Virus record (IMG/VR): IMGVR_UViG_2713896775_000007 | Coordinates: 1-31,955 of that record | Length of the DNA: 31,955 nt | Strand: one strand, 5' to 3' | DNA from: a virus | Lineage: Duplodnaviria; Heunggongvirae; Uroviricota; Caudoviricetes | Part shown: one piece after another, positions 6,766 to 29,406 of the stretch | Numbering within the stretch: the first letter of the stretch is position 1 | Layout: each line of letters starts with the position of its first letter | Made by a program: the position numbers and the translations under genes | The notes under the pieces: model-generated | Told to the model about the DNA's origin: nothing | What the model saw: only the letters and a program-made list of their open reading frames with translations | Database searches by the model: none

Positions 6766-6878
6766 ACTATTTTTACTGTAATAAAAACAGTGAATTACGT
6801 TTAAAAACAGTCCTTTAGTGTTATTTGCTGTTTATATGTTTTATGCGTTTTTAATGCTCTGCCGCCACTTTGTCGCCA

Positions 6879-7937
6879 TTAAATGCGCTGGTCATTTGAT
6901 ATAGGTAAAATGCTTGTAAAGAGTTTTTCGTCATATAGTGCGTACTCAGGTATGTAATCACCATTGCTTTTACCTGTTTGGAAGATAGAGGGGTCCTTGT
7001 CGATTAAAACATATAACTCAATGAGAATATTTCTTAGTCCCCAAAGCATTTGCTTTAGTTGTTTTTCATCATTGAATGAGATGCTTATGGCTTCCGTATC
7101 TGGTTTTGGATGTTCAGGAATTATTGAGAAAAGATGTTCTTGGTATTTATAATCAATTCCAAGTAGTCTGCAAAGTTGAATTATGTTTGATTCTATGAGT
7201 TGTAGGCTAACTAATTGGTTGTCATGATTTTTGTTGTTGGACTTAAGCGATTTGTTTATGTTGTTATAATGATTTGTTGTTTTTCGAATAAAATCTTCTT
7301 CGACAGCGGTGCTATAGCCATTATCAATGGAAGATGATTTGAAAATATTTTTATAAAGAGTGTACGGATGAACTACAGATAGTTCAATACTGTCTATATC
7401 ACTAGTTTCTTTATTTAATCTTGATAATTTAAATGTTGGTAGTGTTTGGAATATATCAGCGAAGCTTTTCAGATGTGAGTAATATGAATCAGTGGTGTTT
7501 TTTTCAATAATAAGATTGATTTGCTTTTGTGTTTTTTCTATTTGGTTCTCTGTTTGTGTGGTTCTATGTATATTGTTGACGATTGCTGCAAGAGGTACCG
7601 AAGAAGCTAAAATAAATAATGGCAATTTAGAGATGTCAAGAAAGTGATTAAAACCGTCTGATGTGAAATTTAAATTGTGGCCTTTCCAAGCCCAGAGGCC
7701 ATACAAAACAAACATTTTTAACGGTACGATAATAGATGCTATGAATAATGGTTGTTTTAATAGATTTTTCTCATTTAGTTTAAGCCAATTGAAGCAATAG
7801 AACATAAGTATCAATCCAAGTATATAAGCTACACTAAAGAAGATAAAAACTCTTGGACGATTAGTGTATATCAATGCTAAGGCAATTAAGATGGTAATGA
7901 TTGCGTAGGTAATGATTAATGTGAGTTTTTTTTTCAT
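6879..7937 (-). CDS. Hypothetical membrane protein (about 4 N-terminal TM helices plus ~230-aa soluble C-terminal domain); moron downstream of the prophage integrase
   Basis: ORF begins 4 nt after the integrase stop; hydrophobic segments LTLIITYAIITILIALALIY, VFIFFSVAYILGLILMFYCF, LFIASIIVPLKMFVLYGLWAW, LPLFILASSVPLAAIV; AT-rich; start 7937 or 7979. Confidence 0.5.
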   Translation of the reverse strand: MKKKLTLIITYAIITILIALALIYTNRPRVFIFFSVAYILGLILMFYCFNWLKLNEKNLLKQPLFIASIIVPLKMFVLYGLWAWKGHNLNFTSDGFNHFLDISKLPLFILASSVPLAAIVNNIHRTTQTENQIEKTQKQINLIIEKNTTDSYYSHLKSFADIFQTLPTFKLSRLNKETSDIDSIELSVVHPYTLYKNIFKSSSIDNGYSTAVEEDFIRKTTNHYNNINKSLKSNNKNHDNQLVSLQLIESNIIQLCRLLGIDYKYQEHLFSIIPEHPKPDTEAISISFNDEKQLKQMLWGLRNILIELYVLIDKDPSIFQTGKSNGDYIPEYALYDEKLFTSILPISNDQRI

Positions 7938-7941
7938 TCTA

Positions 7942-8958
7942 TTAAACCAAATTATGTAAAGGATTTTTTGTAACAGCATCTTCTAGATGGTCTGGAGAAA
8001 AGTGTGCGTAAACCATCGTCATTTTTATATCGGCATGGCCCAATATTTCTTTAAGGACAAGAATATTCCCGCCATTCATCATAAAATGACTGGCGAATGT
8101 ATGACGCAGCACGTGGGTGCATTGGCCCTCTGGTAGCTCGATGCCTGCTCGCTTTACTGCTCGTTCAAAGGCTTTTCTGCACGGTGTGAATAGTTTCCCT
8201 CTGTTCTTGGGGAGTTCATCATACAGATTTTGAGATATCGGCACGGTACGATTTTTCTTACCTTTTGTCTTGGTATAGGTGATCCGGTATTTTGATAACT
8301 GATGGCCCTGCAAGTTTTCTGCTTCACTCCATCGCGCACCAGTAGCCAGGCATATTTTTGCAATCATTAGTAGGCTGGTGTTTTGAGATTCGGCGCAGGC
8401 ATTAAGCAGGCGTTTGATTTCGTCCGTGGAAAGAAAAGCCAATTCACCTTCAGCAATTTTGAAGGTTGGAAGCCCTGCCAGCGGGTTTGGTGCGGACCAG
8501 TGCCCTAGTTTTTTCAATGTACCGAACACCGATGACAGGTTACGCTGCTCAAGATTAACTGTGCGAGGTTTAACGGGTGACATGAACGAGCCGTCTTCAT
8601 TTTGGACCTCCCCCTTTAATCTGGCTTCCCGATATTTTGTGAAATCACCTGCTGTCAGCTCAGAGGCGATGGGATCGCCTAGACCATTACAGATAATTCT
8701 AAGTTTCGCCATCAGGCGTTTGGGGTCTGCGAGTGTTTGACCATATAGGGAATACCACTGCTCAATCACTTCTGATAATCGCCGCCGATCTTCCTTCTCA
8801 CCAAGCCATGGCTTTTTGTTTACTTCGTCCATGGTGAAGCTTTCAAATGCAATGGCTTCGCCTTTGGTAGCAAATTGCTTACGCACGCGCTTACCATTGC
8901 GTCCATTGGGATAGCACTCACACAACCATTTTCCGTTCGGCTGTTTTCTGATGGTCAT
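7942..8958 (-). CDS. int: P2-type tyrosine integrase
   Basis: 338 aa; conserved blocks GRNGKRVRKQF, TGARWSEA, HVLRHTFASHFMMNGGNILVLKEILGH...MVYAHF. Confidence 0.9.
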   Translation of the reverse strand: MTIRKQPNGKWLCECYPNGRNGKRVRKQFATKGEAIAFESFTMDEVNKKPWLGEKEDRRRLSEVIEQWYSLYGQTLADPKRLMAKLRIICNGLGDPIASELTAGDFTKYREARLKGEVQNEDGSFMSPVKPRTVNLEQRNLSSVFGTLKKLGHWSAPNPLAGLPTFKIAEGELAFLSTDEIKRLLNACAESQNTSLLMIAKICLATGARWSEAENLQGHQLSKYRITYTKTKGKKNRTVPISQNLYDELPKNRGKLFTPCRKAFERAVKRAGIELPEGQCTHVLRHTFASHFMMNGGNILVLKEILGHADIKMTMVYAHFSPDHLEDAVTKNPLHNLV

Positions 8959-8961
8959 AAG

Positions 8962-9600
8962 TTAGAGGTTCTTGATTACTTTGACTGCACGTCCTACGAC
9001 TTCCACATCATCTACAGAACATTCAAATGAAGTGTCATCTTGGTTAACTACTATTTTGTTTCCGGGTATGCGCGCAATTTTGACGATGCTTTTAACTCCG
9101 TCCATATCGACTAACCAGAAGCCATTACTGACTTGTTTAACGGACGTATCCACTACAAAGCTATTATTAGCTGTTTTAACAAATAAAGCGTTGGATGAGT
9201 CACCATCGAGCAGGCTGCTATCAAGAAGAATTTCATCACTTGCCTGCAGTTCGCCGTTCTTCAGTTCAACACGTTTGATGCTAGGAGCAACGATCTTAGA
9301 AAGTGGTCTTACAGTGACGGGAGGTTCATTTTTGAGATTTGTTTCTTCGTTCTCACACGCATACATATCTCCTTGACCAGTAGCCAGCCATAGAAGGGAA
9401 ACTCCTGTTTCAAGGGCACATTGAATTACCCATTCGGCAGGAAAGCTATCCCTTAAGTATCTGTTAGCCATAGTGCTTTTGGATACCTCCAGATGTTCGC
9501 AGAGCTGCTGTCGTGAGCTGAAGTTGTAAGCCTTAATAAGCCTGTTAATTGCATCGCGCCCACCACTATCATTTCCCGCCTTGATCAAACTCATAATCAA
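8962..9600 (-). CDS. cI: CI-type immunity repressor (phage 186 CI family)
   Basis: N-terminal HTH block RYLRDSFPAEWVIQCALETGVSLLWLATGQG typical of 186-type CI; divergent from the early lytic promoter. Confidence 0.8.
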   Translation of the reverse strand: MIMSLIKAGNDSGGRDAINRLIKAYNFSSRQQLCEHLEVSKSTMANRYLRDSFPAEWVIQCALETGVSLLWLATGQGDMYACENEETNLKNEPPVTVRPLSKIVAPSIKRVELKNGELQASDEILLDSSLLDGDSSNALFVKTANNSFVVDTSVKQVSNGFWLVDMDGVKSIVKIARIPGNKIVVNQDDTSFECSVDDVEVVGRAVKVIKNL

Positions 9601-11835: not shown

Positions 11836-12689
11836 GTACCATCCTGAAATGGGCGGGTAATAAAACTGCCATTATGTCCGAACTGAAAAAACATCTTCCT
11901 GCTGGCCCGCGACTGGTTGAACCTTTCGCGGGTTCCTGTGCTGTGATGATGGAGACGGATTACCCCAGCTATCTTGTTGCGGATATTAATCCTGATTTAA
12001 TCAACCTCTATAAAAAGGTTGCTGCTGATTGCGAGGCGTTTATATCTCGTGCCAGAGCTTTATTTGAGGAAGCAAACAGGGAGTTGGCTTATTACAACAT
12101 AAGGCAGGAGTTTAATTACTCCACTGAAATTACTGATTTCATGAAAGCGGTATATTTCCTGTATCTCAATCGTCATGGTTACCGTGGGTTATGTCGTTAT
12201 AACAAGAGCGGGCATTTCAACATTCCATACGGTAATTATAAAAATCCGTATTTCCCTGAAAAAGAAATTCGCGCATTTGCAGAGAAAGCCCAGCGAGCAA
12301 CGTTTATCTGCGCCAGCTTTGATGAAACGCTGGCGATGCTGCAGGTGGGGGATGTGGTGTATTGCGATCCGCCTTATGACGGTACGTTTTCCGGCTATCA
12401 CACTAACGGCTTCACTGAAGATGACCAGTATCACCTGGCATCTGTTCTTGAATATCGATCATCAGAAGGTCATCCAGTCATTGTTTCTAACAGTGACACA
12501 TCCCTGATCCGTTCGCTGTATCGAAACTTCACTCACCACTACATCAAGGTAAAACGCAGCATCGGCGTGTCGGCTGGCGAGAGTAAATCTGCAACAGAAA
12601 TCATTGCTGTGTCCGGGGCGCGCTGCTGGGTGGGATTTGATCCTTCGCGTGGCGTGGATAGTTCTGCCATGTACGGAGTGCGTGCATGA
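11832..12689 (+). CDS. dam: Dam-family DNA N6-adenine methyltransferase
   Basis: ILKWAGNK N-terminus, FAGSCAV (AdoMet site) and catalytic DPPY motif; SD GGAGG before ATG 11832. Confidence 0.9.
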
Positions 12690-15100
12690 GCCATGATGAT
12701 ATGAACAACTGCAGCGGCTTTAACGAGGTCGCCGCAGCATTCTCATGGAACAGCCCGAAAAAGGCCATTAACCCTTATCTGGACCCGGCGGAAGTTGCGC
12801 CGGTTTCTGCGCTTTCAAACCTGATCACTCTGTACGCTGTCGATAACGAGCAGGAACAGCTGCGCCGCGAGGCACTGAGTGATCAGGTCTGGGAGCGTTA
12901 TTTCTTTAATGAATCCCGTGATCCTGTCCAACGCGAAATGGAGCAGGATAAACTCATTAGCCGGGCAAAGCTGGCGCATGAGCAGCAGCGTTTTAATCCG
13001 GATATGGTCATTCTGGCGGACGTCAACGCCCAGCCTTCCCATATCAGCAAGCCGCTGATGCAACGTATTGAATACTTCAGCAGCCTGGGCAGGCCAAAGG
13101 CTTATTCCCGCTATTTGCGTGAGACGATTAAGCCATGTCTGGAACGACTGGAGCATGTACGCGAGAGTCAGCTATCCACTTCTTTTCGCTTTATGGCAAG
13201 CCATGAAGGGCTGGACGGCCTGCTGATCCTGCCTGAAATGAGTCAGGATCAGGTGAAACGCCTGTCTACTCTTGTCGCTGCGCATATGAGCATGTGTCTT
13301 GATGCCGCTTGTGGTGATTTGTACACCACCGAAGATGTTAAGCCAGAAGAAATCCGCAAGACATGGGAAAAGGTGGCAGCAGAAACCCTGCGACTGGATG
13401 TCATACCGCCTGCGTTTGAGCATCTCCGCCGGAAAAGAAACCGCCGTAAACCCGTGCCCTATGAACTTATTCCGGGTTCGCTGGCGCGTATGTTGTGCGC
13501 CGACTGGTGGTACCGGAAATTATGGAAGATGCGTAGCGAATGGCGGGAAGAGCAGTTGCGTGCTATTTGCCTGGTCAGCAAAAAAGCATCTCCCTATGTC
13601 AGCTATGAAGCCGTGATGCATAAACGTGAGCAGCGCCGTAAGTCGCTGGAGTTTTTCCGTTCTCATGAACTGGTGAACGAAGACGGCGACACGCTGGATA
13701 TGGAAGACGTGGTAAACGCCAGCAGCAGCAACCCTGCGCATCGCCGCAATGAGATGATGGCCTGTGTTAAAGGTCTGGAGCTTATCGCGGAAATGCGCGG
13801 TGACTGCGCCGTTTTCTACACCATCACCTGTCCGTCACGTTTCCATTCCACGCTAAATAACGGCAGGCCAAACCCGACCTGGACCAACGCGACAGTAAGA
13901 CAAAGCAGCGATTATCTGGTCGGCATGTTTGCTGCATTTCGTAAGGCTATGCACAAAGCCGGGTTGCGCTGGTATGGCGTGCGGGTGGCTGAGCCGCATC
14001 ATGATGGCACAGTTCACTGGCACCTGTTGTGTTTCATGCGCAAAAAAGACCGCCGTGCCATCACTGCATTACTGCGTAAGTTTGCCATCCGTGAAGACCG
14101 CGAGGAGCTGGGCAATAACACTGGGCCGCGCTTTAAGTCTGAGTTGATTAACCCGCGCAAAGGAACGCCGACAAGCTACATCGCGAAATATATCAGTAAG
14201 AACATTGACGGTCGTGGTCTGGCTGGCGAGATCAGCAAGGAAACGGGTAAATCTCTGCGTGATAACGCTGAATACGTGAATGCCTGGGCGTCTTTGCATC
14301 GTGTTCAGCAATTCCGCTTCTTTGGCATTCCGGGGCGTCAGGCTTACCGTGAACTGCGATTGTTGGCTGGTCAGGCGGCAAGGCAACAGGGGGACAAAAA
14401 TGCAGGTGCGCCGGTACTGGATAACCCGCGTCTTGATGCCATTCTGGCTGCTGCTGATGCTGGTTGTTTTGCCACCTACATCATGAAGCAGGGCGGCGTA
14501 CTGGTTCCCCGTAAATATCACCTCATCAGAACCGCTTATGAAATCAACGAAGAGCCGACCGCCTATGGCGATCACGGCATTCGTATTTATGGCATCTGGT
14601 CACCCATTGCAGAGGGCAAGATCTGCACTCATGCAGTGAAGTGGAAAATGGTTCGTAAAGCCGTTGACGTTCAGGAGGCGGCAGCCGACCAGGGCGCTTG
14701 CGCCCCTTGGACTCGTGGCAATAACTGTCCCCTTGCTGAAAATTTGTACCAACAAGGGAAAGACAAATCAGCTGATGGAGATACCAGAACGGATATCACC
14801 CGTATGGATGACAAGGAGTTGCACGATTACCTGCACAGTATGAGCAAAAAAGAGCGCCGGGAACTGGCAGCAAGGTTACGCCTGGTGAAACCGAAACGGC
14901 GTAAAGACTACAAACAGCGAATTACAGATCATCAGCGACAGCAGCTCGTGTATGAACTGAAGTCCAGGGGATTTGATGGCAGCGAGAAAGAGGTCGATTT
15001 ACTCCTTCGCGGCGGCAGTATTCCGTCAGGAGCAGGCCTGCGTATCTTCTATCGGAACCAGCGTTTGCAGGAAGATGATAAGTGGCGGGATCTGTATTAA
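12686..15100 (+). CDS. A: Replication initiation endonuclease gpA (rolling-circle, HUH type)
   Basis: 804 aa; HUH-like [11 protein letters not shown] and tyrosine motif YIAKYISKN. Confidence 0.9.
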
Positions 15101-15169
15101 TTACGCGGGTTAACAATTCGTGCTCTTAATAATACCAGGCATATCAGGCTGATGAACGTAAAAAAACGT

Positions 15170-15196
15170 TTTACATCAGTAAGATTATTATATACT
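15170..15196 (+). promoter_or_regulatory. Candidate SOS promoter for the orf62/dinI-like operon
   Basis: TTTACA (15170..15175), 15-nt spacer, TATACT (15191..15196), with the -10 overlapping the LexA box. Confidence 0.4.
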
Positions 15197-15212
15197 GTAA
15201 ATATAAACAGTG
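15193..15212 (+). promoter_or_regulatory. LexA (SOS) box
   Basis: TACTGTAAATATAAACAGTG = CTGT-N8-ACAG with AT-rich spacer, 41 nt upstream of orf62. Confidence 0.75.
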
Positions 15213-15252
15213 GTTATGTATACAGTATTGCTTTGGTGTCATAGGAGGAAAG

Positions 15253-15441
15253 ATGCAGGCCTATTTTTTGGAGTCTTTGAAGCTCCAGCGCATTGATTTT
15301 TTTCTTAAGCTTGTAGCGGCTAGTGAGTGTAGTGATGAAGAGAAGGGGCTGGCTTTGCAGTGGGTTTCTGAACTAACAGATGAACTCATGGCAAAAATCA
15401 GAACCCACGAATACAACCGCTCAATGGATGTCATCAGCTGA
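15253..15441 (+). CDS. Small SOS-controlled protein (candidate Tum-like antirepressor; function not established)
   Basis: SD AGGAGG at 15243..15248; directly downstream of the LexA box; first gene of a two-gene unit with the DinI-like gene. Confidence 0.45.
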   Translation: MQAYFLESLKLQRIDFFLKLVAASECSDEEKGLALQWVSELTDELMAKIRTHEYNRSMDVIS

Positions 15442-15451
15442 GGTGACTTTT

Positions 15452-15685
15452 ATGCGCATTGAAATAATGATCGATAAAGAGCAGAAGATTAGCCAGTCTA
15501 CCCTGGACGCTCTGGAGTCCGAGCTTTACCGCAACCTGCGCCCCCTGTATCCCAAAACGGTAATTCGTATCCGTAAAGGTAGCTCTAACGGTGTGGAACT
15601 GACCGGACTGAAACTGGACGAAGAAAAAAAACAAGTGATGAAAATTATGCAGAAGGTGTGGGAAGACGACAGCTGGCTGCATTAA
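15452..15685 (+). CDS. DinI-like protein
   Basis: MRIEIMIDK...LESELYRNLRPLYP...WEDDSWL resembles DinI; SD GAGGTGA before ATG 15452. Confidence 0.8.
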   Translation: MRIEIMIDKEQKISQSTLDALESELYRNLRPLYPKTVIRIRKGSSNGVELTGLKLDEEKKQVMKIMQKVWEDDSWLH

Positions 15686-15999
15686 GAAACGTTGCCCCCA
15701 GGAGGATTCATTCTGAAGGGGGCTAGTTTGGGCAACGAGTGAAATAAGGTGTAAGGTCATTTTGATAAATGATCGTCTGCTTTGTGCAAGATGCAAACGT
15801 TTCTTCTGCTAACTTTCGTTAATTAACGAATGGCAGACTAATTCGCAACGGATAATCTGAATTTTGTAAGATTATGGGCATTTCTATAAAATTTACTAAT
15901 AATAACCTTACAATGTACACTACCGATTGAATTTTCCATAGTTGGCCTTTGGCTCTACTTACCATCTATGTTTATGTATTTTATCAAAATGGACTAAAA

Positions 16000-17892
16000 A
16001 TGAACAATACGTACATCAAAGACTATATAGAATATTACCTTAGCCTTACAACTGAACCTCAATACGCCATTATGCTTAAAGGTGCTTGGGGATCAGGTAA
16101 AACTTGGTTCATTGAACAAGTTCTTGAAGAATATAAGCAGAAGAATTCAGAGTTTAAATTTCTAAAAGTGAGTTTGTATGGCGTCAACTCTATTAAGCAG
16201 ATTGAAGATGAGTTCTATCGTCAACTTCATCCTGTCCTATCAAACAAAGCCCTTATCTTTGGTGCAAATGTACTAAAAAATACGCTTAAGGCTACTTTCA
16301 AGATCGATCTCAATGGCGATAATAAATCTGACGTTGATGTCAATACCAATGTTCCCACCATTAATCTTAACGATTTTAGTAGAAAACCAGATGGTTTTGT
16401 GCTGGTCTTTGATGATATCGAGAGAGCTGGTATAGATTTACCAATTTTATTTGGATATATAAACCACTTTGTAGAAGTAAACGGATACAAAGCGATCTTG
16501 GTTGCCAATGAAGAAGAAATAATCAATAGAGAAAAGCGAATAAATAATGATGATGAGAAATCTAGCAGCGAATACATGAGAACAAAAGAAAAGCTTGTTG
16601 GTAAAACATTTGAAGTAACGTCAGATTTACATAGTGCTTGTAATGTTTTTTTGGGCGTAATTAGCAGTTTACACGTTGCTAATATATTTAAAGAAGATAT
16701 GCAGGCCATAGAAGACATCTATGTGTCGGCGAAATATAATAATCTAAGACACTTGAGGCAGTTCTTTCTTGATGTACAACGCATCATTTCCCTTTTTGGA
16801 AATAAATATGTCAGCAACGACGATTTTATGAGGGTATTTTTCCAGCAGTTGTTAATTTTCTCGATAGAGTACCGGGGAGGGAACCTTAACTACGAGGAAT
16901 TCGATTCAATCAGCAATGTTAATTATGGTATGTTTTTAGGTAAAGAGCGTACCAAAACTAAGTATGACATGATCGTCGAGAAATATTCATCTCCTGTATT
17001 AACCGAGAAGTTACTGGATGGTGCGTACTGGAGGGAGCTAATCTGTGATGGAAAGGTAACGAGTGAACTTCTCGCTCAGTTGGATATTACGCGATTTTTT
17101 AGAAGCACCGATGCCCAAGCATGGGAGTATTTGTGGAACTATCGAGAACTTAATGAAACTATGCTTAATGAGCAGTACGCCATTGCCAAGGATAATCTAT
17201 TTTCAGGTAAGATCACTTCCTTAGGTGAACTCCTGATGACCGCGAGTATTTTGCTGGACATGGCGAAAGAAGGTCTAACAACAGATGATGTTCATGATCT
17301 CATAAATGAGACAAAACAGAATATAAATAATTATTATAATAGACTTAGAGCTGAAGATATACATAAGGAATATGCGCAAACGCATTATAACGAATTAAGG
17401 GCATGGCGTGGCTTTGGTTTTCTTGACAGGGATAGCGATGAATTCAAACTCATTATTGAGCATATTGAGATAGCGAAGAAGAAACGGTTTGATGAATCAA
17501 TTCCGGAATTTGCGTTGCAGTTCAGCGATGAGTTGCAAAGGGGAAACTTATCGTTTGTATCTGAATTGAGTCATTCTAATAATAGGCAGTTAAATCTTCA
17601 TAACGTGCCTTTTTTACACTTGGTTCCTCCTGAAGTTTTCATTGAAAGCTATAGGAAACTTGACCCAGTCCTCATGAGGAAACTGGCATTTAGCTTGCGG
17701 AATCGTTATTCTGATGGGGATGCTAGAACCAGACTGACCGAAGAATACAACTGGTTGATTAACCTAAAAGAGATAGCTGTAGATTTCACTCAAAACGCAG
17801 CCAATAACTCCTTTCAGGTTTTTCACGTAAAGTTTTTTATTGACTATGTATTAACTAGCGCAATCAAATTCTTTACTGAGGGAACTGATTAA
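16000..17892 (+). CDS. KAP-family-like P-loop NTPase (cargo; candidate anti-phage gene)
   Basis: Walker A GAWGSGKT and Walker B VLVFDDIER (hhhhDD-x-ER, KAP-like) about 115 aa apart; large helical C-terminal region; AT-rich; likely start ATG 16000. Confidence 0.75.
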   Translation: MNNTYIKDYIEYYLSLTTEPQYAIMLKGAWGSGKTWFIEQVLEEYKQKNSEFKFLKVSLYGVNSIKQIEDEFYRQLHPVLSNKALIFGANVLKNTLKATFKIDLNGDNKSDVDVNTNVPTINLNDFSRKPDGFVLVFDDIERAGIDLPILFGYINHFVEVNGYKAILVANEEEIINREKRINNDDEKSSSEYMRTKEKLVGKTFEVTSDLHSACNVFLGVISSLHVANIFKEDMQAIEDIYVSAKYNNLRHLRQFFLDVQRIISLFGNKYVSNDDFMRVFFQQLLIFSIEYRGGNLNYEEFDSISNVNYGMFLGKERTKTKYDMIVEKYSSPVLTEKLLDGAYWRELICDGKVTSELLAQLDITRFFRSTDAQAWEYLWNYRELNETMLNEQYAIAKDNLFSGKITSLGELLMTASILLDMAKEGLTTDDVHDLINETKQNINNYYNRLRAEDIHKEYAQTHYNELRAWRGFGFLDRDSDEFKLIIEHIEIAKKKRFDESIPEFALQFSDELQRGNLSFVSELSHSNNRQLNLHNVPFLHLVPPEVFIESYRKLDPVLMRKLAFSLRNRYSDGDARTRLTEEYNWLINLKEIAVDFTQNAANNSFQVFHVKFFIDYVLTSAIKFFTEGTD

Positions 17893-17957
17893 CTTTTTGT
17901 TGATTAACATAGGCAATATTATTAGAAGTACTAGGGATAGTCAGTAAAATTATTAAC

Positions 17958-17989
17958 GTCCGCTTCGCTCAAAGCGGACTTTGTGCTTT
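17958..17989 (+). terminator. Rho-independent terminator after the KAP NTPase gene
   Basis: GTCCGCTT (17958..17965), loop CGCTCA, AAGCGGAC (17972..17979), then TTTGTGCTTT. Confidence 0.6.
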
Positions 17990-18177
17990 ATAAAAACGAG
18001 AGTTTTGTTTTTCAAGCGGTCATTCGGTTACGGGATTTCACTTCCCCCGTAAGTGCATGACTATGCCGCATGAGATCGCATGATCGTTTGCGGATCGTTT
18101 TTGCTAAGGCACGCCAGAACTGGTGGGATTTTGCGTAGATCATGCGCCTGCATGAAAACCGCTACATAAAGCGGGCA

Positions 18178-18197
18178 GGCGTGGCGGGGATACGAGC
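18178..18197. other. Candidate cos site (P2/186-type cohesive-end sequence) inside a GC-rich non-coding block (17990..18274)
   Basis: GGCGTGGCGGGGATACGAGC followed by GCGCGCTG; the first 13 nt match the 186/P2 cohesive-end consensus GGCG(A/T)GGCGGGGA as recalled, and the GCGCGCTG just downstream also matches P2. Confidence 0.45.
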
Positions 18198-18304
18198 GCG
18201 CGCTGTATGCCTGAAGTGGCTAAAATAGTATCTGTCATAGGTACAACTTAGTGTAGTATCATCCATATAATCCATTGAAATATAATCGACTCTCATTAGA
18301 GGTG

Positions 18305-19303
18305 ATGATGAACGGAATCTGGTACGAAAACACTCATACACGCATTCCTAATTTTGAAACAACAGTACATCAAAAGCACAAATTCGGTTACGCTTATGAA
18401 ACAACAAGTCATTTTGTGCATCTGTATGGGCGTGACGTGGGATTTAATGTAATATCAGTTGGGTTAACTGTTATTGAGCAACGAAGTGGAACTCTCAATG
18501 ATTGGGTTCGGAGAGTATTTGGGGCTCAGAACATATCTCCTTTAGATAATGAAATTGGACATGTAACTAGGGGAGTGTGGCGGCCATCCTTATATTATGT
18601 CAATGATACAGAAACAGCATTAGGTATCGATGAGTTTGAAAAAAGAGCAACAGAGCAAGCTCTAAGAGTTTTGATAGAAAAACTCGATGATATTTTTCTA
18701 TATGTAGAACCAAGTGCCCATGGTTTGATTTCTTACAGTCATAAATGTAGAGAGCTATTAATTCTTGCTTGTACTGAGGTTGAAAATCAATGGGTGTCAA
18801 TCATTGGTAATTCGAATTTATCTCGTTCAAATGGTCGATACTCCACAAATGATTATGTGAAATTATTAGATAAGTGTTATTTGTCTGAATATAAAATTCA
18901 ATATTTGAATTATGACGGATTAAGGCATTTCAAACCTTTTGATGGGTGGAATGCAAGTACCCCTACAACATCTTTGTCATGGTATAATGCATATAATAAA
19001 ACTAAACATGATAGATCAGGAGCATTCCACTTTTCCACTTTAGAAAATGTAATGGATGCAGTTGCTGCTTGTGTTGTAATGTACTGTGTAAAATATGGCC
19101 CGTTTAGCTTATTGGAAGCCAATACGTCTCTATCAACGATCGTTAATCAAAACTTTTCAATTTCATTAGATAATAGCAATCCAGCAAGTTATTACATTCC
19201 TGAAATTGAACTTCCACCGGATACAAGAACGGATTTATTAATTTATGATTGTTATCGAGAAAACCATAATAAAGCATGGGTCACTGATCCCCTAGTGCTC
19301 TAA
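18305..19303 (+). CDS. Hypothetical protein, about 333 aa (cargo); possible HEPN-like Rx4H motif (speculative)
   Basis: AT-rich ORF after the cos-like block; C-terminal KTKHDRSGAFHFSTLENV contains R-x4-H; start ATG 18305 or 18308 (ORF track begins at TTG 18275). Confidence 0.55.
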   Translation: MMNGIWYENTHTRIPNFETTVHQKHKFGYAYETTSHFVHLYGRDVGFNVISVGLTVIEQRSGTLNDWVRRVFGAQNISPLDNEIGHVTRGVWRPSLYYVNDTETALGIDEFEKRATEQALRVLIEKLDDIFLYVEPSAHGLISYSHKCRELLILACTEVENQWVSIIGNSNLSRSNGRYSTNDYVKLLDKCYLSEYKIQYLNYDGLRHFKPFDGWNASTPTTSLSWYNAYNKTKHDRSGAFHFSTLENVMDAVAACVVMYCVKYGPFSLLEANTSLSTIVNQNFSISLDNSNPASYYIPEIELPPDTRTDLLIYDCYRENHNKAWVTDPLVL

Positions 19304-19312
19304 TTTCCTGCT

Positions 19313-19342
19313 AAAGGGAGCTTTTAATTATAAACGCTCCCT
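19313..19342. terminator. Candidate bidirectional terminator between convergent cargo genes
   Basis: AAGGGAGC (19313..19320), 14-nt AT loop, GCTCCCTT (19335..19342). Confidence 0.45.
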
Positions 19343-19359
19343 TCGGTTGTCGCTATTTA

Positions 19360-19986
19360 TTATATATCAATAGAGTTTTGAAATTTTAATAACTGCCATC
19401 TTGTTAATAGTGGTTTTATTGCTATGTTGTGTTGGGTATTTATTTTTAAACCTTCGAATTTCGAATATCCATTTTCCAAGGCTTCCACTGAAAAATGAAT
19501 GGTTTTTGTTATCGGGTTTATAGCACAAAGATTTAGGTCATATAAAGTATGAATGTCACTTCTGAGCAATAATCCATTGCTAATATGATTGTGACTATCG
19601 TTTCGATATACATTAATGTGAGCAGCATCAAGAATATCAACAAGCTTACAGCCCATAACCGCACAAGTAGGATTTGATTTTAATAGCTGGTCGCGAAATG
19701 TTTTTTGCCCACTTCGTTGTTTTATTTGCCGTTCTACAATTTGCCGTTGATCTTCACCCATTAAAGTGGGGGTGTCTTTATCAGCTTCGCTGGCGTTGAG
19801 CTCCAGAATAATAGTATGTTGGGCGGTAAGCAAAGCAACAGCCCATTGATAGTTAACTTCTTGGATGGACATTTGCCCATTGTAGCGTGGAGTTTCATCT
19901 ATAAATTGTGACATTGTAATATTGGATAATTTACGGTACTGGTTGCCGCAGTATGCTATAAATTCTTTAGCTGGCTCAAAAACCAC
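19360..19986 (-). CDS. HNH endonuclease domain protein (C-terminal portion of a probable frameshifted gene)
   Basis: CAVMGC...AAHINVYRNDSHNHISNGLLLRSDIHTLYD is an HNH signature; this frame stays open upstream of the GTG at 19986 back to a stop at 20077..20079. Confidence 0.7.
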   Translation of the reverse strand: MVFEPAKEFIAYCGNQYRKLSNITMSQFIDETPRYNGQMSIQEVNYQWAVALLTAQHTIILELNASEADKDTPTLMGEDQRQIVERQIKQRSGQKTFRDQLLKSNPTCAVMGCKLVDILDAAHINVYRNDSHNHISNGLLLRSDIHTLYDLNLCAINPITKTIHFSVEALENGYSKFEGLKINTQHNIAIKPLLTRWQLLKFQNSIDI

Positions 19987-20033
19987 TCTGGGTTCATCAA
20001 ATTCATGGCCATTATCACAACGCCACTCTGATT

Positions 20034-20333
20034 TTATAGTTTTCCTTTGAAGAATTTTTTTGCTTTGCAGTCTAGGTTAATACATTTGTTACGCTTCTTA
20101 TTAATGCTCTGTGTTTCTAATTTTTCAATAACAGATATACCTAAAATATTTTCTCTGTTGGTAATAATAATAATATCACCGTCTTTTACATTTTTGTGGT
20201 TCGCTACAAAACTGTCATAGCGATAGAAAACTGATGAGTCATCGGGATAACTATCATTTCCCCAGTATCTAAGATCGTCTTTCTCAATTGCCTTAAAAAA
20301 AACCATACTTGCTGTACCATGAACTTTTCCCAC
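20034..20333 (-). CDS. Small beta-rich N-terminal domain ORF (likely N-terminal portion of the frameshifted HNH gene)
   Basis: 99-aa ORF ending just after an A7 run; a single A insertion would fuse it in frame to the HNH ORF. Confidence 0.4.
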   Translation of the reverse strand: MGKVHGTASMVFFKAIEKDDLRYWGNDSYPDDSSVFYRYDSFVANHKNVKDGDIIIITNRENILGISVIEKLETQSINKKRNKCINLDCKAKKFFKGKL

Positions 20334-20390
20334 TAATCAAATTTTGGTTTGTTCTATCGAACAGCAAAGCATGTTGATATACAAGAGAAA

Positions 20391-21422
20391 TCATCCCAAA
20401 GAATATGGCTCAAATCGCAAAATTTTTTGTTCTAACCAGTCATTTACTTCACGCATCCTTTTTTGCAACGGTAATAATTCATTTCGCACAAACACATTTG
20501 CCGCCTTCTCCACATCCCCAAACCCCCCAACATTGCTAGGCATTATCCCCATCATTTGTGGTGGCACACGATGCGCTGCCATCATGTCATCCCGACTCAC
20601 GTTCTTGATGTTAAGAAATTCATCCTTCGCTGCGACTTCTGATAGCGGGATAATCTGAAGCCCGTCTTTTTTGCCGTTAGGCGAGTACATAAACAGGTTG
20701 CGGAAGTTACCCGGACCTTTGGCACTTTTCATCGCGTTGCGGAGGTTGTTTACATCCTCCTGGTTCTGCGCGGCGTCGGTCATGTACATGATGAAGCCTG
20801 CATGACTGCCGTTGATGTAATACTTACGGCGGAACAGCGTGGCGGACTCATTGAGCAGGGCGGACGGAATGGCAGAAAGATAGCCGGGCAGGCCGTAGAT
20901 CTCTTGGTTAATGTCCGGTTCCATCAGATGAAAAATGCTGCCTTTCGTGAACTGATACGGCTGGGTTGTCATACCGTATTGCACAAACCAGTAGGTATTC
21001 AGGTCTAACCCGCGTCGGGTGTATTTTGCCAGAGCAGGCTCAAGGGCGATAACTTCACCGAAGCGGTTCGTGCGTTTCTCCAGGTAGGCGTTACCAAATA
21101 CCAGATAGTCCTGCACAAAACGTGAAAAAGCCTGCTGGCTGAGCAGCGGGTGAGGGATGTAGGTACTGGTCAGAATGTTGCATTTCACCGCAATTGGTGA
21201 ACTGTGATGCACGGCGGCGCGGAAGGTGCGCGCCAGTCCGTCAAAACTCACTGGCGGCTCATACCAGCGATCTGTCTGTACGCATTCCACATAGTCCAGT
21301 AGTTCACGGCGGTCCAGAACCGGAACGGGATCGCCGAAGCTGAATGCTTCGGCTGAAGTCTGGTTTTTATGCTGGGTCTGTTTCGTCGCCGCAGCGAGGT
21401 TCTTCTTACTCTTTCCCATCAA
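20391..21422 (-). CDS. Q: Portal protein gpQ
   Basis: 343 aa, P2 Q-like; overlaps the start of P. Confidence 0.9.
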   Translation of the reverse strand: MMGKSKKNLAAATKQTQHKNQTSAEAFSFGDPVPVLDRRELLDYVECVQTDRWYEPPVSFDGLARTFRAAVHHSSPIAVKCNILTSTYIPHPLLSQQAFSRFVQDYLVFGNAYLEKRTNRFGEVIALEPALAKYTRRGLDLNTYWFVQYGMTTQPYQFTKGSIFHLMEPDINQEIYGLPGYLSAIPSALLNESATLFRRKYYINGSHAGFIMYMTDAAQNQEDVNNLRNAMKSAKGPGNFRNLFMYSPNGKKDGLQIIPLSEVAAKDEFLNIKNVSRDDMMAAHRVPPQMMGIMPSNVGGFGDVEKAANVFVRNELLPLQKRMREVNDWLEQKILRFEPYSLG

Positions 21423-23185
21423 AAAATCTCCACAATATTGCTGGTATTGGCGGACTCGCCCTGCAGCGGTTCGTTAAACAGTGCGTGCATTGTTGCCCAG
21501 GCCAGATCGGCATGGCTGGCTTCTTCGCTGCGGCTGGCTTCATAGGTCGGGCGGTTGCCACTGGCGGTGGTGGCGCGACGGATTGCCATGAATGACTGCG
21601 CAATGTCGGTGTGCCCGGCGTCAAACTCAAGACGGCGGTGGCTGATAATGTCGTAGGCCTTGAGTACCAGGGCGTTTTTAACGTTGGGGTTGTAGACAAA
21701 CTCCCGGACGGCAGGAAAAAACGCTTTCACGTTCTCGTAAACCCCGTGACCAACGCCGGTTGAGTCGATGCCGATATAGGTCACGTTGTACTGTTCGGTC
21801 AGTTTTTTGATGGCGTCAGCCTGGGCGCGAAAGTCCATTCCGCGCCACTGGTGACGCTCAAGAATGCGGAACTTACCGCCTGGCACGGCTGGCGGTGCCA
21901 CCACCACGCATCCGGCGCTGTCGCCGTTCTGCGTACCTTTTGCCGGGTCATAACCGATCCACACTTCGCGCCAGCCAAACGGGCGCAGGGCCAGTGCATG
22001 AAAGTCGGTCCAGACTTCCCAGCTGTCCACCATGCACGCCTGCAATTCGCTGAGCGGGAACACGGACGCGAGATCGTCCACGAACTCGCACATCAGCAGG
22101 TTCTGGTATTCGTCAGGGCTGTACTCCATGCGCAACTGGTCAAGGTCGAACAGGTTACAGCCGCCGCGCACCGCATCTTCCACGGTGACTATCTGGCGGT
22201 ATTGCCCGTCTGCGCACAGCAGGCCGGGGGCCAGATTGCTGTGGGACAGGTCGATGTCCACCTTGTCAGCTTTGTTGCGCCCACGGTTGAACAGCGCACC
22301 GGACCAGAACGGATAAGCACTGTGGGTCAGACTGGATGGTGTGGAAAAATAGGTCTGCCGCCATTTCTTGTGAATAGCCATACCGGAAGCCACTTTGCGT
22401 AGCTCCTGAAATTTCGGTATCCAGAAATATTCATCCAGATACAGGTTGCCGTGATAACTCTGGGCCGTGCGGGCATTGGTGCCGAGGAAGTAAAGCGTGG
22501 CCCCGTTAGGAAGTACCATCGGATCGCCTTTCAGCTCCACCTCCACTTCTTTGGCGAAGTCGATGATGTACTGCTTAAAGACGTGGGCCTGTGCCTTACT
22601 GGCGGAAAGGAAAATCTGGTTACGCCCGGTAAGCAGGGCGTCAATCAGGGCTTCACGGGCAAAGTAAAAGGTCGCGCCGATCTGGCGTGACTTCAGCAGG
22701 TTGCGGATGCGGTTGGTTTTTCCGGCTTCCCACCAGTGGCGCTGGTAGTTGAACATGGAGGAATGGAAGATTTCTTCCAGTTTCTCAATCTGTTCATCGG
22801 TGAAGACATTTTTTTCCGGCTGACGGCGCGGGCCTTTGTTGCGGTTGGCGACGTTAGGATTTAAGTCGGCTTCGTTGCCGCCATTGTTAAACTTGCCGAT
22901 CCGCGCGTGGCGCTCAGACTGGCGCGCCAGCAGGTCAATCTCTTTGAAATCTTTCCCTTCTTTGTGCTCCTTCATAATGAGCTGGCAGTAGCGTGCGGCG
23001 GTGGTGAGCTGCATCTGATCCAGCGGCCCATAGTCACCCCACTTGTCGCGTTTTTTCCAGCTGTGAACGGTTGCAACTTTCTCGCCCAGCATTTCAGCAA
23101 TGCGGGCTACGCGGTATCCCTGAAAGTACAGCAGCATGGCCTGCCGACGGGGATCGAGATCTGCGGGTGTCAGTGTGGTGTTCAT
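21419..23185 (-). CDS. P: Terminase large (ATPase) subunit gpP
   Basis: 588 aa, P2 P-like; divergent from O. Confidence 0.9.
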   Translation of the reverse strand: MNTTLTPADLDPRRQAMLLYFQGYRVARIAEMLGEKVATVHSWKKRDKWGDYGPLDQMQLTTAARYCQLIMKEHKEGKDFKEIDLLARQSERHARIGKFNNGGNEADLNPNVANRNKGPRRQPEKNVFTDEQIEKLEEIFHSSMFNYQRHWWEAGKTNRIRNLLKSRQIGATFYFAREALIDALLTGRNQIFLSASKAQAHVFKQYIIDFAKEVEVELKGDPMVLPNGATLYFLGTNARTAQSYHGNLYLDEYFWIPKFQELRKVASGMAIHKKWRQTYFSTPSSLTHSAYPFWSGALFNRGRNKADKVDIDLSHSNLAPGLLCADGQYRQIVTVEDAVRGGCNLFDLDQLRMEYSPDEYQNLLMCEFVDDLASVFPLSELQACMVDSWEVWTDFHALALRPFGWREVWIGYDPAKGTQNGDSAGCVVVAPPAVPGGKFRILERHQWRGMDFRAQADAIKKLTEQYNVTYIGIDSTGVGHGVYENVKAFFPAVREFVYNPNVKNALVLKAYDIISHRRLEFDAGHTDIAQSFMAIRRATTASGNRPTYEASRSEEASHADLAWATMHALFNEPLQGESANTSNIVEIF

Positions 23186-24177: not shown

Positions 24178-25236
24178 ATGAAGAAGAATACCCGCTTTGC
24201 TTTTAACGCTTACCTGCAGCAGCTGGCGCGTCTGAACGGTGTGGCAGTTGAAGAACTGTCCAGCAAATTCACTGTGGAGCCGTCTGTGCAGCAGACGCTG
24301 GAAGACCAGATCCAGCAGTCCGCCGCTTTCCTGACGCTGATTAACGTCACGCCAGTGACTGAGCAGTCCGGTCAGCTGCTGGGGCTGGGTGTTGGCAGCA
24401 CCATTGCCGGAACCACTGACACCACCGCGAAAGAGCGTGAACCTGTCGACCCGACGCTGATGGTCGATGTGGAATATAAATGCGAGCAGACCAACTTTGA
24501 CACGGTGCTGACCTACGCGAAGCTGGACCTGTGGGCGAAGTTTCAGGATTTCCAGGTGCGTATCCGTGACGCCATCGTGAAACGTCAGGCACTGGACCGC
24601 ATCATGATCGGCTTTAACGGCGTGAAGCGTGCGAAAACCTCCAACCGTAGTGAAAACCCGCTGCTGCAGGATGTGAACAAAGGCTGGCTGCAGAAAATCC
24701 GTGAGGATGCACCGGATCACGTCATGGGCAGCACCACCACGGGCGGCGAAACCACACCGGGTGCGGTGAAAGTCGGGAAAGGTGGCGAATATGCCAACCT
24801 GGACGCTGTGGTGATGGATGCGGTCAATGAGCTTATCGACGTGGTCTACCAGGACGATGACGATCTGGTGGTGATTTGCGGTCGTGAACTGCTGTCTGAC
24901 AAGTATTTCCCGCTGGTCAACAAAGAGCAGGAGAACAGTGAAAAACTGGCTGCCGATATGATCATCAGCCAGAAACGTATGGGTGGCCTGCAGGCGGTGC
25001 GTGCGCCGTTCTTCCCGCCGAATGCGCTGCTGATCACCCGTCTGGATAACCTGTCCATCTACTGGCAGGAAGATACCCGCCGCCGTTCAGTTATCGACAA
25101 CCCGAAACGTGACAGGATTGAAAATTTTGAATCCGTTAACGAAGCCTATGTGGTTGAGGACTATCGCTGCGCTGCACTGGTGGAAAACATCCAGATTGGT
25201 GACTTCAGCGCCGCCGCAGCAGAAACCGGAGCGTAA
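24178..25236 (+). CDS. N: Major capsid protein gpN
   Basis: 352 aa; FAFNAYLQQLARLNGV...KFTVEPSVQQTL resembles P2 N. Confidence 0.9.
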   Translation: MKKNTRFAFNAYLQQLARLNGVAVEELSSKFTVEPSVQQTLEDQIQQSAAFLTLINVTPVTEQSGQLLGLGVGSTIAGTTDTTAKEREPVDPTLMVDVEYKCEQTNFDTVLTYAKLDLWAKFQDFQVRIRDAIVKRQALDRIMIGFNGVKRAKTSNRSENPLLQDVNKGWLQKIREDAPDHVMGSTTTGGETTPGAVKVGKGGEYANLDAVVMDAVNELIDVVYQDDDDLVVICGRELLSDKYFPLVNKEQENSEKLAADMIISQKRMGGLQAVRAPFFPPNALLITRLDNLSIYWQEDTRRRSVIDNPKRDRIENFESVNEAYVVEDYRCAALVENIQIGDFSAAAAETGA

Positions 25237-25239
25237 TTC

Positions 25240-25890
25240 ATGAGCCTGAGTCCCGCACGGCAGCATCGCCTGCGCGTTCAGGCTGAACAGGCCGCTCGCG
25301 AGGGTGGCAGTGTTCGCCACGCGTCGGGCTATGACCTGATGCTGCTGCAACTGGCGGAAGACCGCCGCCGTCTCAAGGGCGTTCAGTCCACGGTCAAAAA
25401 AGCGGAAATCAAGGTGGAGCTGCTGCCGAAGTACGCCGCCTGGGCGGAGGGTGTCCTGGCTGCCGGAGGCGCTCAACAGGATGACGTGCTGATGTACGTG
25501 ATGCTGTGGCGCATTGATGCCGGAGATTATGCCGGGGCGCTGGAGATCGGGCGTCACGCCCTGCGTCATGGCTGGGTGATGCCGTTAGGTAACCGCAACG
25601 TGCAGACCGTGCTGGCAGAGGAAATGGCAGACGCGGCGCAGAGCGCAATGCTTGCCGCCACCGGCTTTGATGCTGATCTGTTGCTGCAGACGCTGGAGCT
25701 GACAGACGGTCTGGATATGCCGGACCAGTCACGGGCACGTCTGCATAAAGCGATTGGCGCTGTCCTGAGTGAAAGCAATCCGGCTTCCGCCCTTAATCAT
25801 CTTAACCATGCGTTACAGCTCGATCCCCGCTGTGGCGTGAAAAAAGACAAACAGCAGCTGGAGCGCAGGCTGCGCAATGACAGCCGCTGA
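25240..25890 (+). CDS. M: Terminase small (endonuclease) subunit gpM
   Basis: 216 aa, position and size as P2 M. Confidence 0.85.
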   Translation: MSLSPARQHRLRVQAEQAAREGGSVRHASGYDLMLLQLAEDRRRLKGVQSTVKKAEIKVELLPKYAAWAEGVLAAGGAQQDDVLMYVMLWRIDAGDYAGALEIGRHALRHGWVMPLGNRNVQTVLAEEMADAAQSAMLAATGFDADLLLQTLELTDGLDMPDQSRARLHKAIGAVLSESNPASALNHLNHALQLDPRCGVKKDKQQLERRLRNDSR

Positions 25891-25985
25891 CAGAACGTGC
25901 CCCCGCGCACGGGCGGCACGGGGTGGCGAAAGGCACTGCCACATCAAAACCCCGTCCACCGCCCTTTATTTCAGGAGAAAGCAGC

Positions 25986-26450
25986 ATGAAGTTTGTTGCG
26001 CCAGAACAGGCACCGGAACAGGCGGAAATCATCAGGAATACGCCGTTCTGGCCTGATGTGGACCTGTCGGAGTTTCGCAGCGTGATGCGCACTGACGGCA
26101 CGGTGACGCAGCCGCGTTTAAAGCAGGTTGCGCTGTCGGCAATTTCGGAGGTCAACGCAGAGCTGTATGAGTTTCGCAGACGCCAGCAGATGCTGGGGTA
26201 TGCCTCGCTGGCAGAGGTTCCGGCGGAACAGCTGGACGGCAAAAGTGAGCGCATTCAGCACTATTTCAACGCGGTTTACTGCTGGGCACGCGCCATGCTC
26301 AACGAACGTTACCAGGACTATGACGCCACGGCGTCCGGTGTGAAGCGGGGCGAGGAACTGGCGGAAGCAAGCGGTGATTTGTGGCGTGACGCCCGCTGGG
26401 CCATCAGCCGGGTGCAGGATGCGCCGCACTGCACAGTGGAGCTTATCTGA
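25986..26450 (+). CDS. L: Head completion/stabilisation protein gpL
   Basis: SD AGGAGAAA before ATG 25986; the longer 25923 start was rejected. Confidence 0.8.
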   Translation: MKFVAPEQAPEQAEIIRNTPFWPDVDLSEFRSVMRTDGTVTQPRLKQVALSAISEVNAELYEFRRRQQMLGYASLAEVPAEQLDGKSERIQHYFNAVYCWARAMLNERYQDYDATASGVKRGEELAEASGDLWRDARWAISRVQDAPHCTVELI

Positions 26451-27926: not shown

Positions 27927-28320
27927 AGCAGTGCCTTATGTCCGCAATAACCCGGACAAACTGCATCTGTTTGTGGATAACGGTTCGCTGGTTGCCACGG
28001 GGGCCAGCTCCATGTCATGGGAGTACCGTTATACCCTCAACGTGGTGATTGAGGATTTCAGCGGCGACCAGAATCTGCTGATGGCCCCGGTTTTGCTGTG
28101 GCTGCGTGATAACCAGCCCGATGCCATCAATAACCCGGCGTTACGGGAAAAACTATTCACCTTTGAGGTGGATATTTTGCGCAACGATGTCTGTGATATC
28201 AGCCTTAACCTGCAACTGACGGAGCGTGTGCTGGTCAGCACTGACGGCAGTGTGTCGAGTGTTGAAGCTGTAGCGGAACCCGATGAACCTGAAGAAATGT
28301 GGACGGTGAAACGTGGCTGA
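27889..28320 (+). CDS. R: Tail completion protein gpR
   Basis: SD AGGAG at 27876..27880 before GTG 27889; product begins VNKPQSLRHAL like P2 R; the 27868 start was rejected. Confidence 0.75.
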   Translation: MNKPQSLRHALNKAVPYVRNNPDKLHLFVDNGSLVATGASSMSWEYRYTLNVVIEDFSGDQNLLMAPVLLWLRDNQPDAINNPALREKLFTFEVDILRNDVCDISLNLQLTERVLVSTDGSVSSVEAVAEPDEPEEMWTVKRG

Positions 28321-28759
28321 ACTGCAGAAGGTGGACGACTGGCTGAGTGCTTTGCTGGCGAATCTGGAACCAGCCGCAAGAAGCCGCATGATGCGCCAGC
28401 TGGCGCAGGAACTGCGCCGGACACAGCAGCAGAATATCAGAATGCAGCGCAATCCAGATGGCAGCAGTTATGAACCTCGACGGGTAACAGCACGCAGTAA
28501 AAAGGGGCGCATCAAACGTCAGATGTTTGCAAAGCTGCGCACCGCAAAATACCTGAAAACTGCCGCCAGCGCCGATTCTGCCAGCGTGCAGTTTGAAGGT
28601 AAGGTGCAGCGCATTGCCCGCGTTCATCACTACGGCCTGCGCGATCGCGTCAGTCGTAAAGGACCGGAGGTCCGTTACGCAGAGCGTCGCCTCCTAGGCG
28701 TAAATGATGATGTTGAGGCAATGACCCGCGACATGATTCTGCAATGGCTGGCGGTGTGA
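28313..28759 (+). CDS. S: Tail completion protein gpS
   Basis: 148 aa, GTG start overlapping the R stop. Confidence 0.8.
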   Translation: MAELQKVDDWLSALLANLEPAARSRMMRQLAQELRRTQQQNIRMQRNPDGSSYEPRRVTARSKKGRIKRQMFAKLRTAKYLKTAASADSASVQFEGKVQRIARVHHYGLRDRVSRKGPEVRYAERRLLGVNDDVEAMTRDMILQWLAV

Positions 28760-28827: not shown

Positions 28828-29406
28828 ATGAACGCACAATTAACCGAAATCATGCGCCTTATCACCAACCTGATCCGCACAGGTGTAGTCACCGAAGTGG
28901 ACCGGGAGAACTGGCTTTGCCGGGTGAAAACGGGCGACCTTGAAACCAACTGGATCAGCTGGCTGACGCTGCGTGCCGGGAATGCCCGCACATGGTGGCG
29001 ACCATCGGAAGGTGAACAGGTGGTGCTGCTGAGTCTGGGCGGCAATCTTGAAACCGCCTTTGCGTTGCCCGCTGTCTATTCGAATCAGTTCGCTCCACCG
29101 TCGACGTCGGCGGACGCCTGCGTGACAGAACATCCTGACGGTGGCTGGTTTGAATACGAACCCGCCACCGGGCGCTGGTATGTCAGGGGCATCAAATCCA
29201 TGGTCATTGAGGCTGCCGACAACATCACCCTGAAAACCAGTGAGTTTGTGCTGGAGGCTGACCGCTCGCGTATTAACAGCGAAGTGGTGATCAATGGTGG
29301 CGTTACCCAGGGCGGCGGTGCGATGAGTTCTAACGGGATCGTGGTTGATGCGCATCAGCATACTGGCGTCCTGAAAGGCGGTGATACCACCGGAGGCCCG
29401 GTATGA
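28828..29406 (+). CDS. V: Baseplate spike protein gpV
   Basis: 192 aa, P2 V-like. Confidence 0.85.
   Translation: MNAQLTEIMRLITNLIRTGVVTEVDRENWLCRVKTGDLETNWISWLTLRAGNARTWWRPSEGEQVVLLSLGGNLETAFALPAVYSNQFAPPSTSADACVTEHPDGGWFEYEPATGRWYVRGIKSMVIEAADNITLKTSEFVLEADRSRINSEVVINGGVTQGGGAMSSNGIVVDAHQHTGVLKGGDTTGGPV

Follow-up and report, generated by a model that had tools for sequence, protein, structure and literature searches.

Does a GC-rich non-coding block lying among the accessory genes of a prophage hold its cos (cohesive-end) site, and is that position as unusual as it first appears? The locus that raises this question lies in a 31,955-nt stretch of viral DNA (IMG/VR record IMGVR_UViG_2713896775_000007; hereafter the window), which the open reading frame (ORF) map and domain searches identify as a 186/Fels-2-type P2-like prophage (Peduoviridae) of Escherichia coli, with the gene order A, DinI, cargo, cos, cargo, Q (minus strand), P (minus strand), O, N and M. 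An initial annotation, made from the sequence alone, had placed a cos-like sequence in mid-cargo rather than next to Q. That placement is borne out at 18178-18196; no other cos-like site occurs in the window. The surrounding segment 18052-18204 is, as judged by sequence comparison, very probably the cos site of this prophage. The element is real and functional-looking, and it is also already known in kind: a standard cos, in a known lineage and at a cargo hotspot already described, and a phage genome nearly identical to it has been published.

The alignment with P2 and 186 supports this identification. We took the annotated cohesive ends of P2 (GGCGAGGCGGGGAAAGCAC) and 186 (GGCGTGGCGGGGAAAGCAT) from their records and rebuilt the circular cos regions of both phages by joining the right end to the left end. 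Gap-free alignment with the annotated cosL of these phages gives a predicted 19-nt 5' cohesive end, GGCGTGGCGGGGATACGAG, on the plus strand at 18178-18196, within the string GGCGTGGCGGGGATACGAGCGCGCGCTG located at 18178-18205. Without gaps, the 19-mer is identical to the 186 end at 15/19 positions and to the P2 end at 14/19. Its first 13 nt had been said to match both phages; this holds in full for 186 (13/13), whereas for P2 the agreement is 12/13 (position 5 T, not A). The further claim that the sequence after the cohesive end matches P2 stands, since GCGCGCTG occurs 3' of the overhang at P2's offset. Upstream TGCATGAAAACCGCTACATAAAGCGGGCA and downstream CGCGCGC both align with P2 and 186, and the form YGCGCGC after the overhang is common to P2, 186, P4, Salmonella phage SEN8 and the window. 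The window thus has a G-rich 19-nt cohesive end starting GGCG(A/T)GGCGGGG, with TGCAT(G/T)AAAACCG...AAAGCGGGCA before it and CGCGCGC after it, spaced as in P2, 186 and P4. Its genomic setting is equally typical: cos sits between the replication/accessory region and the divergent Q-P pair, and the terminase genes M and P are both present.

A GC-rich block of this kind could also resemble a cohesive end by chance, or represent another element such as a promoter/terminator region or a small RNA, with the true cos lying next to Q; the block does contain terminator-like hairpins, and in P2 and 186 cos is found 167-176 nt from Q. The searches leave little room for this. The degenerate pattern of the first 15 nt, GGCGWGGCGGGGAWA, has one exact occurrence in the window, and dinucleotide shuffles yield an expectation of 0.13 matches even with 2 mismatches allowed. 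When the P2, 186 and window cos regions were compared with the whole window by blastn-short, the sole match was 18148-18190; neither this search nor the pattern scan found a second cos-like sequence between 18205 and Q or elsewhere in the window, and no Rfam family matched 15000-20500 at E <= 1. Together with the conservation of a 153-nt island in >130 loci, described below, these results refute the explanation as far as sequence analysis goes, and we give it next to no credence. One 2-mismatch match to the pattern, at 12646, was considered as a second cos and rejected, as it lies inside gene A and is without the conserved flanks.

The conservation of this segment has sharp limits. We fetched 160 loci encoding relatives of Q, half of them (80) from one-genome-per-species bacterial assemblies and the other 80 from IMG/VR; 136 of the 160 carry the element, with its orientation relative to Q unchanged. 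Searched against phage records, the intergenic region matched 87-93 P2-like phages, and in these records and the 136 loci alike the matches nearly always start at 18052-18055 and end at 18202-18206. BLAST edges, conservation and GC content therefore delimit a plus-strand cos module at 18052-18204, 153 bp long and sharp-edged in 130 distinct related loci, composed of a 126-nt left arm, the 19-nt cohesive end and an 8-nt right flank (CGCGCGCT, 18197-18204). The initial annotation had proposed 17990-18274, a span that contains the conserved element but is too wide. Across 131 unique aligned sequences, mean identity to the window lies at 0.63-1.00 over 18048-18207 and at ~0.25 on either side; 18168-18197 is nearly invariant, core columns around the cut site are 90-100% conserved, and the core of the module agrees with the family consensus at every highly conserved column. 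In more distant phages, 18052-18203 is the only island shared between the DinI end (15695) and the 3' part of Q. Conservation stops at the right flank, with the E. coli LR-50 sequence diverging after 18204, so that only 7-8 bp are constrained to the right of the overhang. The earlier description of a GC-rich block in the cargo region is likewise accurate: the module has 55.6% GC against 36.6% in the left cargo and 35.2% in the right, and the structural genes have 56.2%, which puts its composition with the phage core and apart from the cargo. The alignment proposed at the outset as a check, with the P2 and 186 cos regions, accordingly shows the end, the flanks and the 126-nt left arm to be conserved, and its motif offsets are those of P2, 186 and P4.

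The 19-mer itself is identical in 102 of the 136 related loci; the other endings seen, CTACGAG, GTACGAG and ATACGAT, occur in more distant hosts, while EtG and PSP3 carry the 186-type end. Two occurrences of the site merit a separate mention. The metagenomic contig IMGVR_UViG_3300011853_000021 holds two exact 19-mers in opposite orientation, 3.2 kb apart (3447-3465, minus strand; 6704-6722, plus strand), a pattern that may reflect two neighbouring elements or an assembly that was joined at virion ends. In E. coli 13TMH22, the cos core lies near the start (163-219) of a 36,172-bp record deposited as a separate replicon (NZ_CP019257.1), possibly the genome of a P2-like phage that was assembled as an extrachromosomal circle.

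The left arm is marked by five GCATGA motifs, direct at 18055, 18068, 18078 and 18150 and inverted at 18140-18145, which are candidate terminase recognition repeats. They make up 5 of the 18 GCATGA sites on both strands of the window and fall within 101 nt, where 0.057 would be expected (Poisson P ~5e-9), and their columns are conserved among the related loci. The use of an extended left arm with repeated GCAT motifs as a mark of cos is a pattern seen in this analysis. Measured from the cut site, GCAT(G/T)A motifs occur at offsets -124, -111, -101, inverted -36 and -29 across the window, SEN8, P2, 186 and P4, with the inverted -36 site missing in P2 and P4; spacings of 13 and 10 nt separate the three distal copies. 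P4 is packaged by the P2 terminase. Because P4 is moreover reported, in the relevant passage of Rousset et al. 2022 (PMC9122126), to have only the cos region in common with P2, the shared GCAT offsets are good candidates for terminase recognition, and the GCATGA repeats are likely to be the recognition sites of the terminase small subunit. Among the 119 IMG/VR loci carrying the exact 19-mer, none (0/119) has homologues of sid, delta, psu or alpha; for P4-like satellites with this end the result is uninformative, since satellites may be missing from IMG/VR.

The fine position of the cut is a matter of analogy with P2 and 186, according to which the top strand would be nicked before 18178 and the bottom strand after 18196. 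The site could be a functional cos and still be nicked elsewhere, so that the overhang is not exactly 18178-18196 but, for example, longer as in phiCTX, whose cosL is annotated as 21 nt; of the final six overhang positions, four are not those of P2 and 186, and ends of the ATACGAG variant are known from annotation alone. Yet the flanks, AAAGCGGGCA before and YGCGCGC after, hold the exact spacing of P2, 186 and P4, and the phiCTX-type loci in the fetched set are visibly different and longer. Displaced nicks therefore seem to us a distinctly improbable account of the window.

Whether the site is still cut in this prophage depends on the remainder of the packaging machinery, which appears whole. 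The portal protein Q (20391-21422, minus strand; Pfam Phage_portal), the terminase large subunit P (21419-23185, minus strand; Terminase_5, Terminase_6N and Terminase_6C) and the small, endonuclease subunit M (25240-25890, plus strand; Phage_term_smal, 2.2e-40) are intact, and P, M and Q as well as the scaffold protein O and the capsid protein N are all of full length and carry the domains expected of them. Among the P2-like prophages of enterobacteria, many are cryptic. A cos genuine by descent could accordingly survive as a relic in a defective prophage and never be cut, an explanation to which the frameshifted HNH cargo gene beside it and the partial coverage of a prophage whose tail genes run past the end of the window both lend some weight. 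It is met by the fit of the cut-site core to the family consensus at all highly conserved columns, by the intact terminase, portal, scaffold and capsid genes, and by the prophage of E. coli ET665, which matches window 15100-20400 at 99.5% identity and has the full gene set from int to ogr (~36 kb, between ypjA and ssrA). We consider the relic explanation unlikely, and the prophage may well be active at present.

Several observations nonetheless weigh against taking 18052-18204 as a working cos. The frameshift in the HNH gene points to some decay, and the window ends inside the tail genes, so that only part of the prophage is covered and its viability is presumptive. The contact of terminase with the GCATGA repeats is read from their conservation. 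Overhang length varies within the family, as the 21 nt annotated for phiCTX show, which makes the exact cut positions proposed here inferential. A full-text search with the 19-mer returned only the SEN8 announcement, where the cos derives from annotation and bears the label 'putative' (Bosak et al. 2017, PMC5427200). Set beside the homology, the conservation edges and the intact packaging genes, these points temper the identification of 18052-18204 as a cos of the 186/Fels-2 type, which we still hold to be very probable.

On this identification, packaging would follow the course known for P2 and 186. Induction would give an excised circular genome, and on this circle, once replicated, terminase (gpM small subunit, gpP large subunit) would recognise the 126-nt left arm, where the GCATGA repeats lie. 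It would then nick GGCGTGGCGGGGATACGAG (18178-18196) with a stagger of 19 nt, leaving linear virion DNA that starts at 18178 and ends at 18196 with 5' cohesive ends. The predicted packaged order runs from the genes for a 332-aa protein and the HNH endonuclease at the left end through Q, P and the rest to A, DinI, a KAP NTPase gene and the left arm at the right end. After injection the ends would anneal, and integration via attP next to int would bring cos to the middle of the prophage map. Since the constraint on the right amounts to 7-8 bp and the left arm ends 126 bp away, foreign genes can sit directly on either side. With cos 2.2 kb from Q (2,194 nt to its stop) and placed between the KAP NTPase and the pair of 332-aa and HNH genes, the packaged genome would thus carry cargo at both ends. 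The initial annotation had foreseen as much, and the idea gains support from the deposited SEN8 genome, whose left end is the left end predicted here.

The cargo on the two sides is of defence type. The left slot (15696-18051, plus strand), which would form the right end of the packaged genome, holds a KAP-family P-loop NTPase (15949-17892, plus strand; Pfam KAP_NTPase, 3.7e-22) whose whole length is covered by a match to PDC-S49, a candidate defence family of PADLOC (E 3.6e-159). It is closed by a terminator-like hairpin at 17958-17979 (plus strand) found by a terminator scan, and homology with the E. coli C21 genome resumes at 17963. On the right, the first gene (18305-19303, plus strand) starts with the ATG at 18305 and encodes a 332-aa protein of unknown function, previously taken as a 342-aa ORF; it may be HEPN-like, and membership of the HEPN-domain (Abi-like) proteins, defined by a four-helix fold with an Rx4-6H catalytic motif, was considered for it. 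The second (19360-20333, minus strand) encodes an HNH endonuclease (Pfam HNH_2) that is frameshifted into ORFs of 99 aa and 208 aa; by tblastn, the intact 319-aa protein of SEN8 matches two frames meeting near 20040-20070, in an A-run. The region is annotated as two separate ORFs in E. coli ET665 and C21 as well. Direct reading of the sequence reveals a putative hairpin, AAGGGAGC...GCTCCCTT, at 19314-19343 between these convergent genes. The HNH gene starts 57 nt past the stop of Q on the strand that it shares with Q, with no terminator of the tQ/tW type after Q. We also asked whether the 332-aa and HNH genes belong together as a conserved system of two genes and rejected this, because in Mucilaginibacter, Acinetobacter, Vibrio and Ereboglobus the 332-aa protein has other neighbours and no adjacent HNH gene.

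Is cargo in this place exceptional? The distance between cos and Q exceeds 300 nt in 123 of 135 related loci (91%), with a median of 1,687 nt, and in 52 of the 62 loci of the one-genome-per-species set. Askora et al. (PMC5694545), in the part that deals with this region, treat the cosL-Q position as a hotspot already known, for which they refer to Dodd & Egan 1996 and to Nakayama 1999. The suggestion that a cos set apart from Q by accessory genes is out of the ordinary thus did not hold up. In the window, the interval from 18205 to 20390 has 35% GC, against 56% in the core, and other sequences take its place in LR-50, vB_EcoM-813R9, 500465-1 and Fels-2; the breakpoints lie at 18203/4 and 20410-20503. 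The occupants differ: a 565-aa protein in Fels-2, a Hypoth_Ymh-domain protein in vB_EcoM-813R9 and a TIR-domain protein in 500465-1. In relatives with other right cargo, homology resumes 20-110 nt inside the Q coding sequence (20410-20503), and the last portal codons are therefore exchanged together with the cargo.

Two sets of mosaics separate the flanks of cos. Among the matches listed, 13 E. coli genomes (e.g. LR-50) are ~99% identical to the window from A through the KAP NTPase and cos to 18204/18205; beyond that point their right cargo is short and unlike that of the window, up to 20410 within the 3' end of Q; for LR-50 itself, identity over 12001-18204 is 97.6%. Conversely, 10 E. coli genomes among the matches listed (e.g. 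C21) agree with the window from 17963 on, in terminator, cos and right cargo, while a CDI-immunity and RNase A-like pair replaces the KAP NTPase. Left and right slots are therefore exchanged independently of each other, and cos is the homologous anchor that they have in common. Occupancy, measured from the DinI stop so as to leave out the shared A-DinI segment, could be scored in 87 loci with DinI, cos and Q: both slots are filled in 55, the right alone in 25, the left alone in 6 and neither in 1, so that the right slot is occupied in 80/87 and the left in 61/87. The right slot also falls into more sequence clusters than the left (92 vs 59), in a cruder clustering of 116 loci in which the left stretch still included the shared A-DinI segment.

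For this part of the genome, passages of Rousset et al. 2022 (PMC9122126) describe a gpA-gpQ hotspot adjacent to cos, list 1,650 arrangements of genes for the gpA-gpQ interval of E. coli and raise the speculation that exchange is promoted by cohesive ends. Our data allow a tentative extension of that proposal: the A-to-Q hotspot might consist of two independent cargo slots abutting a minimal 153-bp cos module, and double-strand ends made by terminase at cos, or exposed on injection, could serve as the recombination substrate behind the exchange, as these authors speculated. We regard this as less likely than not. The right slot begins 8 bp beyond the overhang, and if the proposal is correct, the razor-sharp breakpoint at 18204 would be a footprint of such exchange.

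Elsewhere in the window, the ORF map and domain searches place the integrase at 7942-8958 (minus strand), the CI repressor at 8962-9600 (minus strand), replication protein A at 12686-15100 and a DinI/Tum-like gene at 15380-15685. Beside the prophage integrase, positions 1-7900 form an AT-rich island (29-37% GC) with its own tyrosine integrase (5326-6597, minus strand) and matches to the ABC-3C components MC3 (3469-3915) and CTD7/Cap4-nuclease (3912-5111), to DUF3732 (1649-3469) and to DUF6119 (47-1387). The otherwise near-identical ET665 prophage is without this island and abuts ypjA instead; the island is probably a separate defence island, or else cargo between int and the attachment site. 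The ET665 relative also has an extra AAA-family ATPase gene (24260-26056 of fetched locus L175) between the tail-completion genes and the baseplate gene V, a third cargo position that is empty in the window (S 28313-28759, V 28828-29406).

As a discovery, the finding that this prophage has a standard P2-family packaging site carries little weight. It does place the defence-type cargo, namely the KAP NTPase, the possibly HEPN-like 332-aa protein and the decayed HNH gene, in two known variable positions flanking cos. For annotation, the coordinates to enter for cos are 18178-18196, and catalogues of cargo should treat the A-to-Q interval as divided by cos. The 153-bp module with its fixed GCAT pattern is, in addition, a handy marker for cos in prophages of the Fels-2/SEN8 type.

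Compared with known systems, the site resembles the cos of P2 and 186 in the GGCG(A/T)GGCGGGG start, in the flanks AAAACCG...AAGCGGGC before and YGCGCGC after, and in the GCAT positions of the left arm; the packaging genes Q and P are likewise its neighbours, in matching orientation. It differs at overhang positions 14, 16, 17 and 19, where the window ends in ATACGAG and those phages in AAAGCAC or AAAGCAT, and in its distance to the stop of Q, which is 2,194 nt in the window, 167 nt in P2 and 176 nt in 186. Work by Ziermann and Calendar from 1990 is said to describe a 55-bp cos core common to P2, P4 and their relatives.

The closest counterpart is SEN8 (Felsduovirus, NC_047753), in which an identical 19-mer is annotated as cos; in its announcement the cos site is printed as 'ggcgtggcggggatacgag' (Bosak et al. 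2017, PMC5427200). The SEN8 record starts with the 19-mer and ends exactly one base before it. Window 18178-20395 and SEN8 1-2216 are colinear end to end at 91.6% nucleotide identity, in the same order of cos, 332-aa protein, HNH endonuclease and Q, and the 332-aa proteins are identical at 304/333 positions (translated ORFs including the stop). The HNH protein is intact in SEN8 (319 aa) and frameshifted in the window, and to the left of cos SEN8 carries a 'DNA binding protein' where the window has the KAP NTPase. SEN8 was propagated from one plaque, and CsCl served for its purification (Bosak et al. 2017, PMC5427200); as it forms plaques, a phage with this cos site is viable.

The layout recurs more widely. 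In phiCTX, cosL (1-21) is followed by the cytotoxin gene ctx (362-1222) and Q (1417-2469), so that cargo lies between cosL and Q as in the window, and the retrons Ec67/Ec86 of 186-related prophages and ORF1-4 of phiRSY1 are likewise placed directly right of cos; these slots differ from that of the window in their cargo genes and hosts. The left slot of the window corresponds to the tin/old position of P2. Finally, the gpA-gpQ defence hotspot of Rousset et al. 2022 (PMC9122126) is the interval that holds the KAP NTPase, 332-aa and HNH genes of the window, described there as lying next to cos; in the passages of that study concerned with the hotspot, A-to-Q is treated as one locus, whereas the window presents two slots split by cos.
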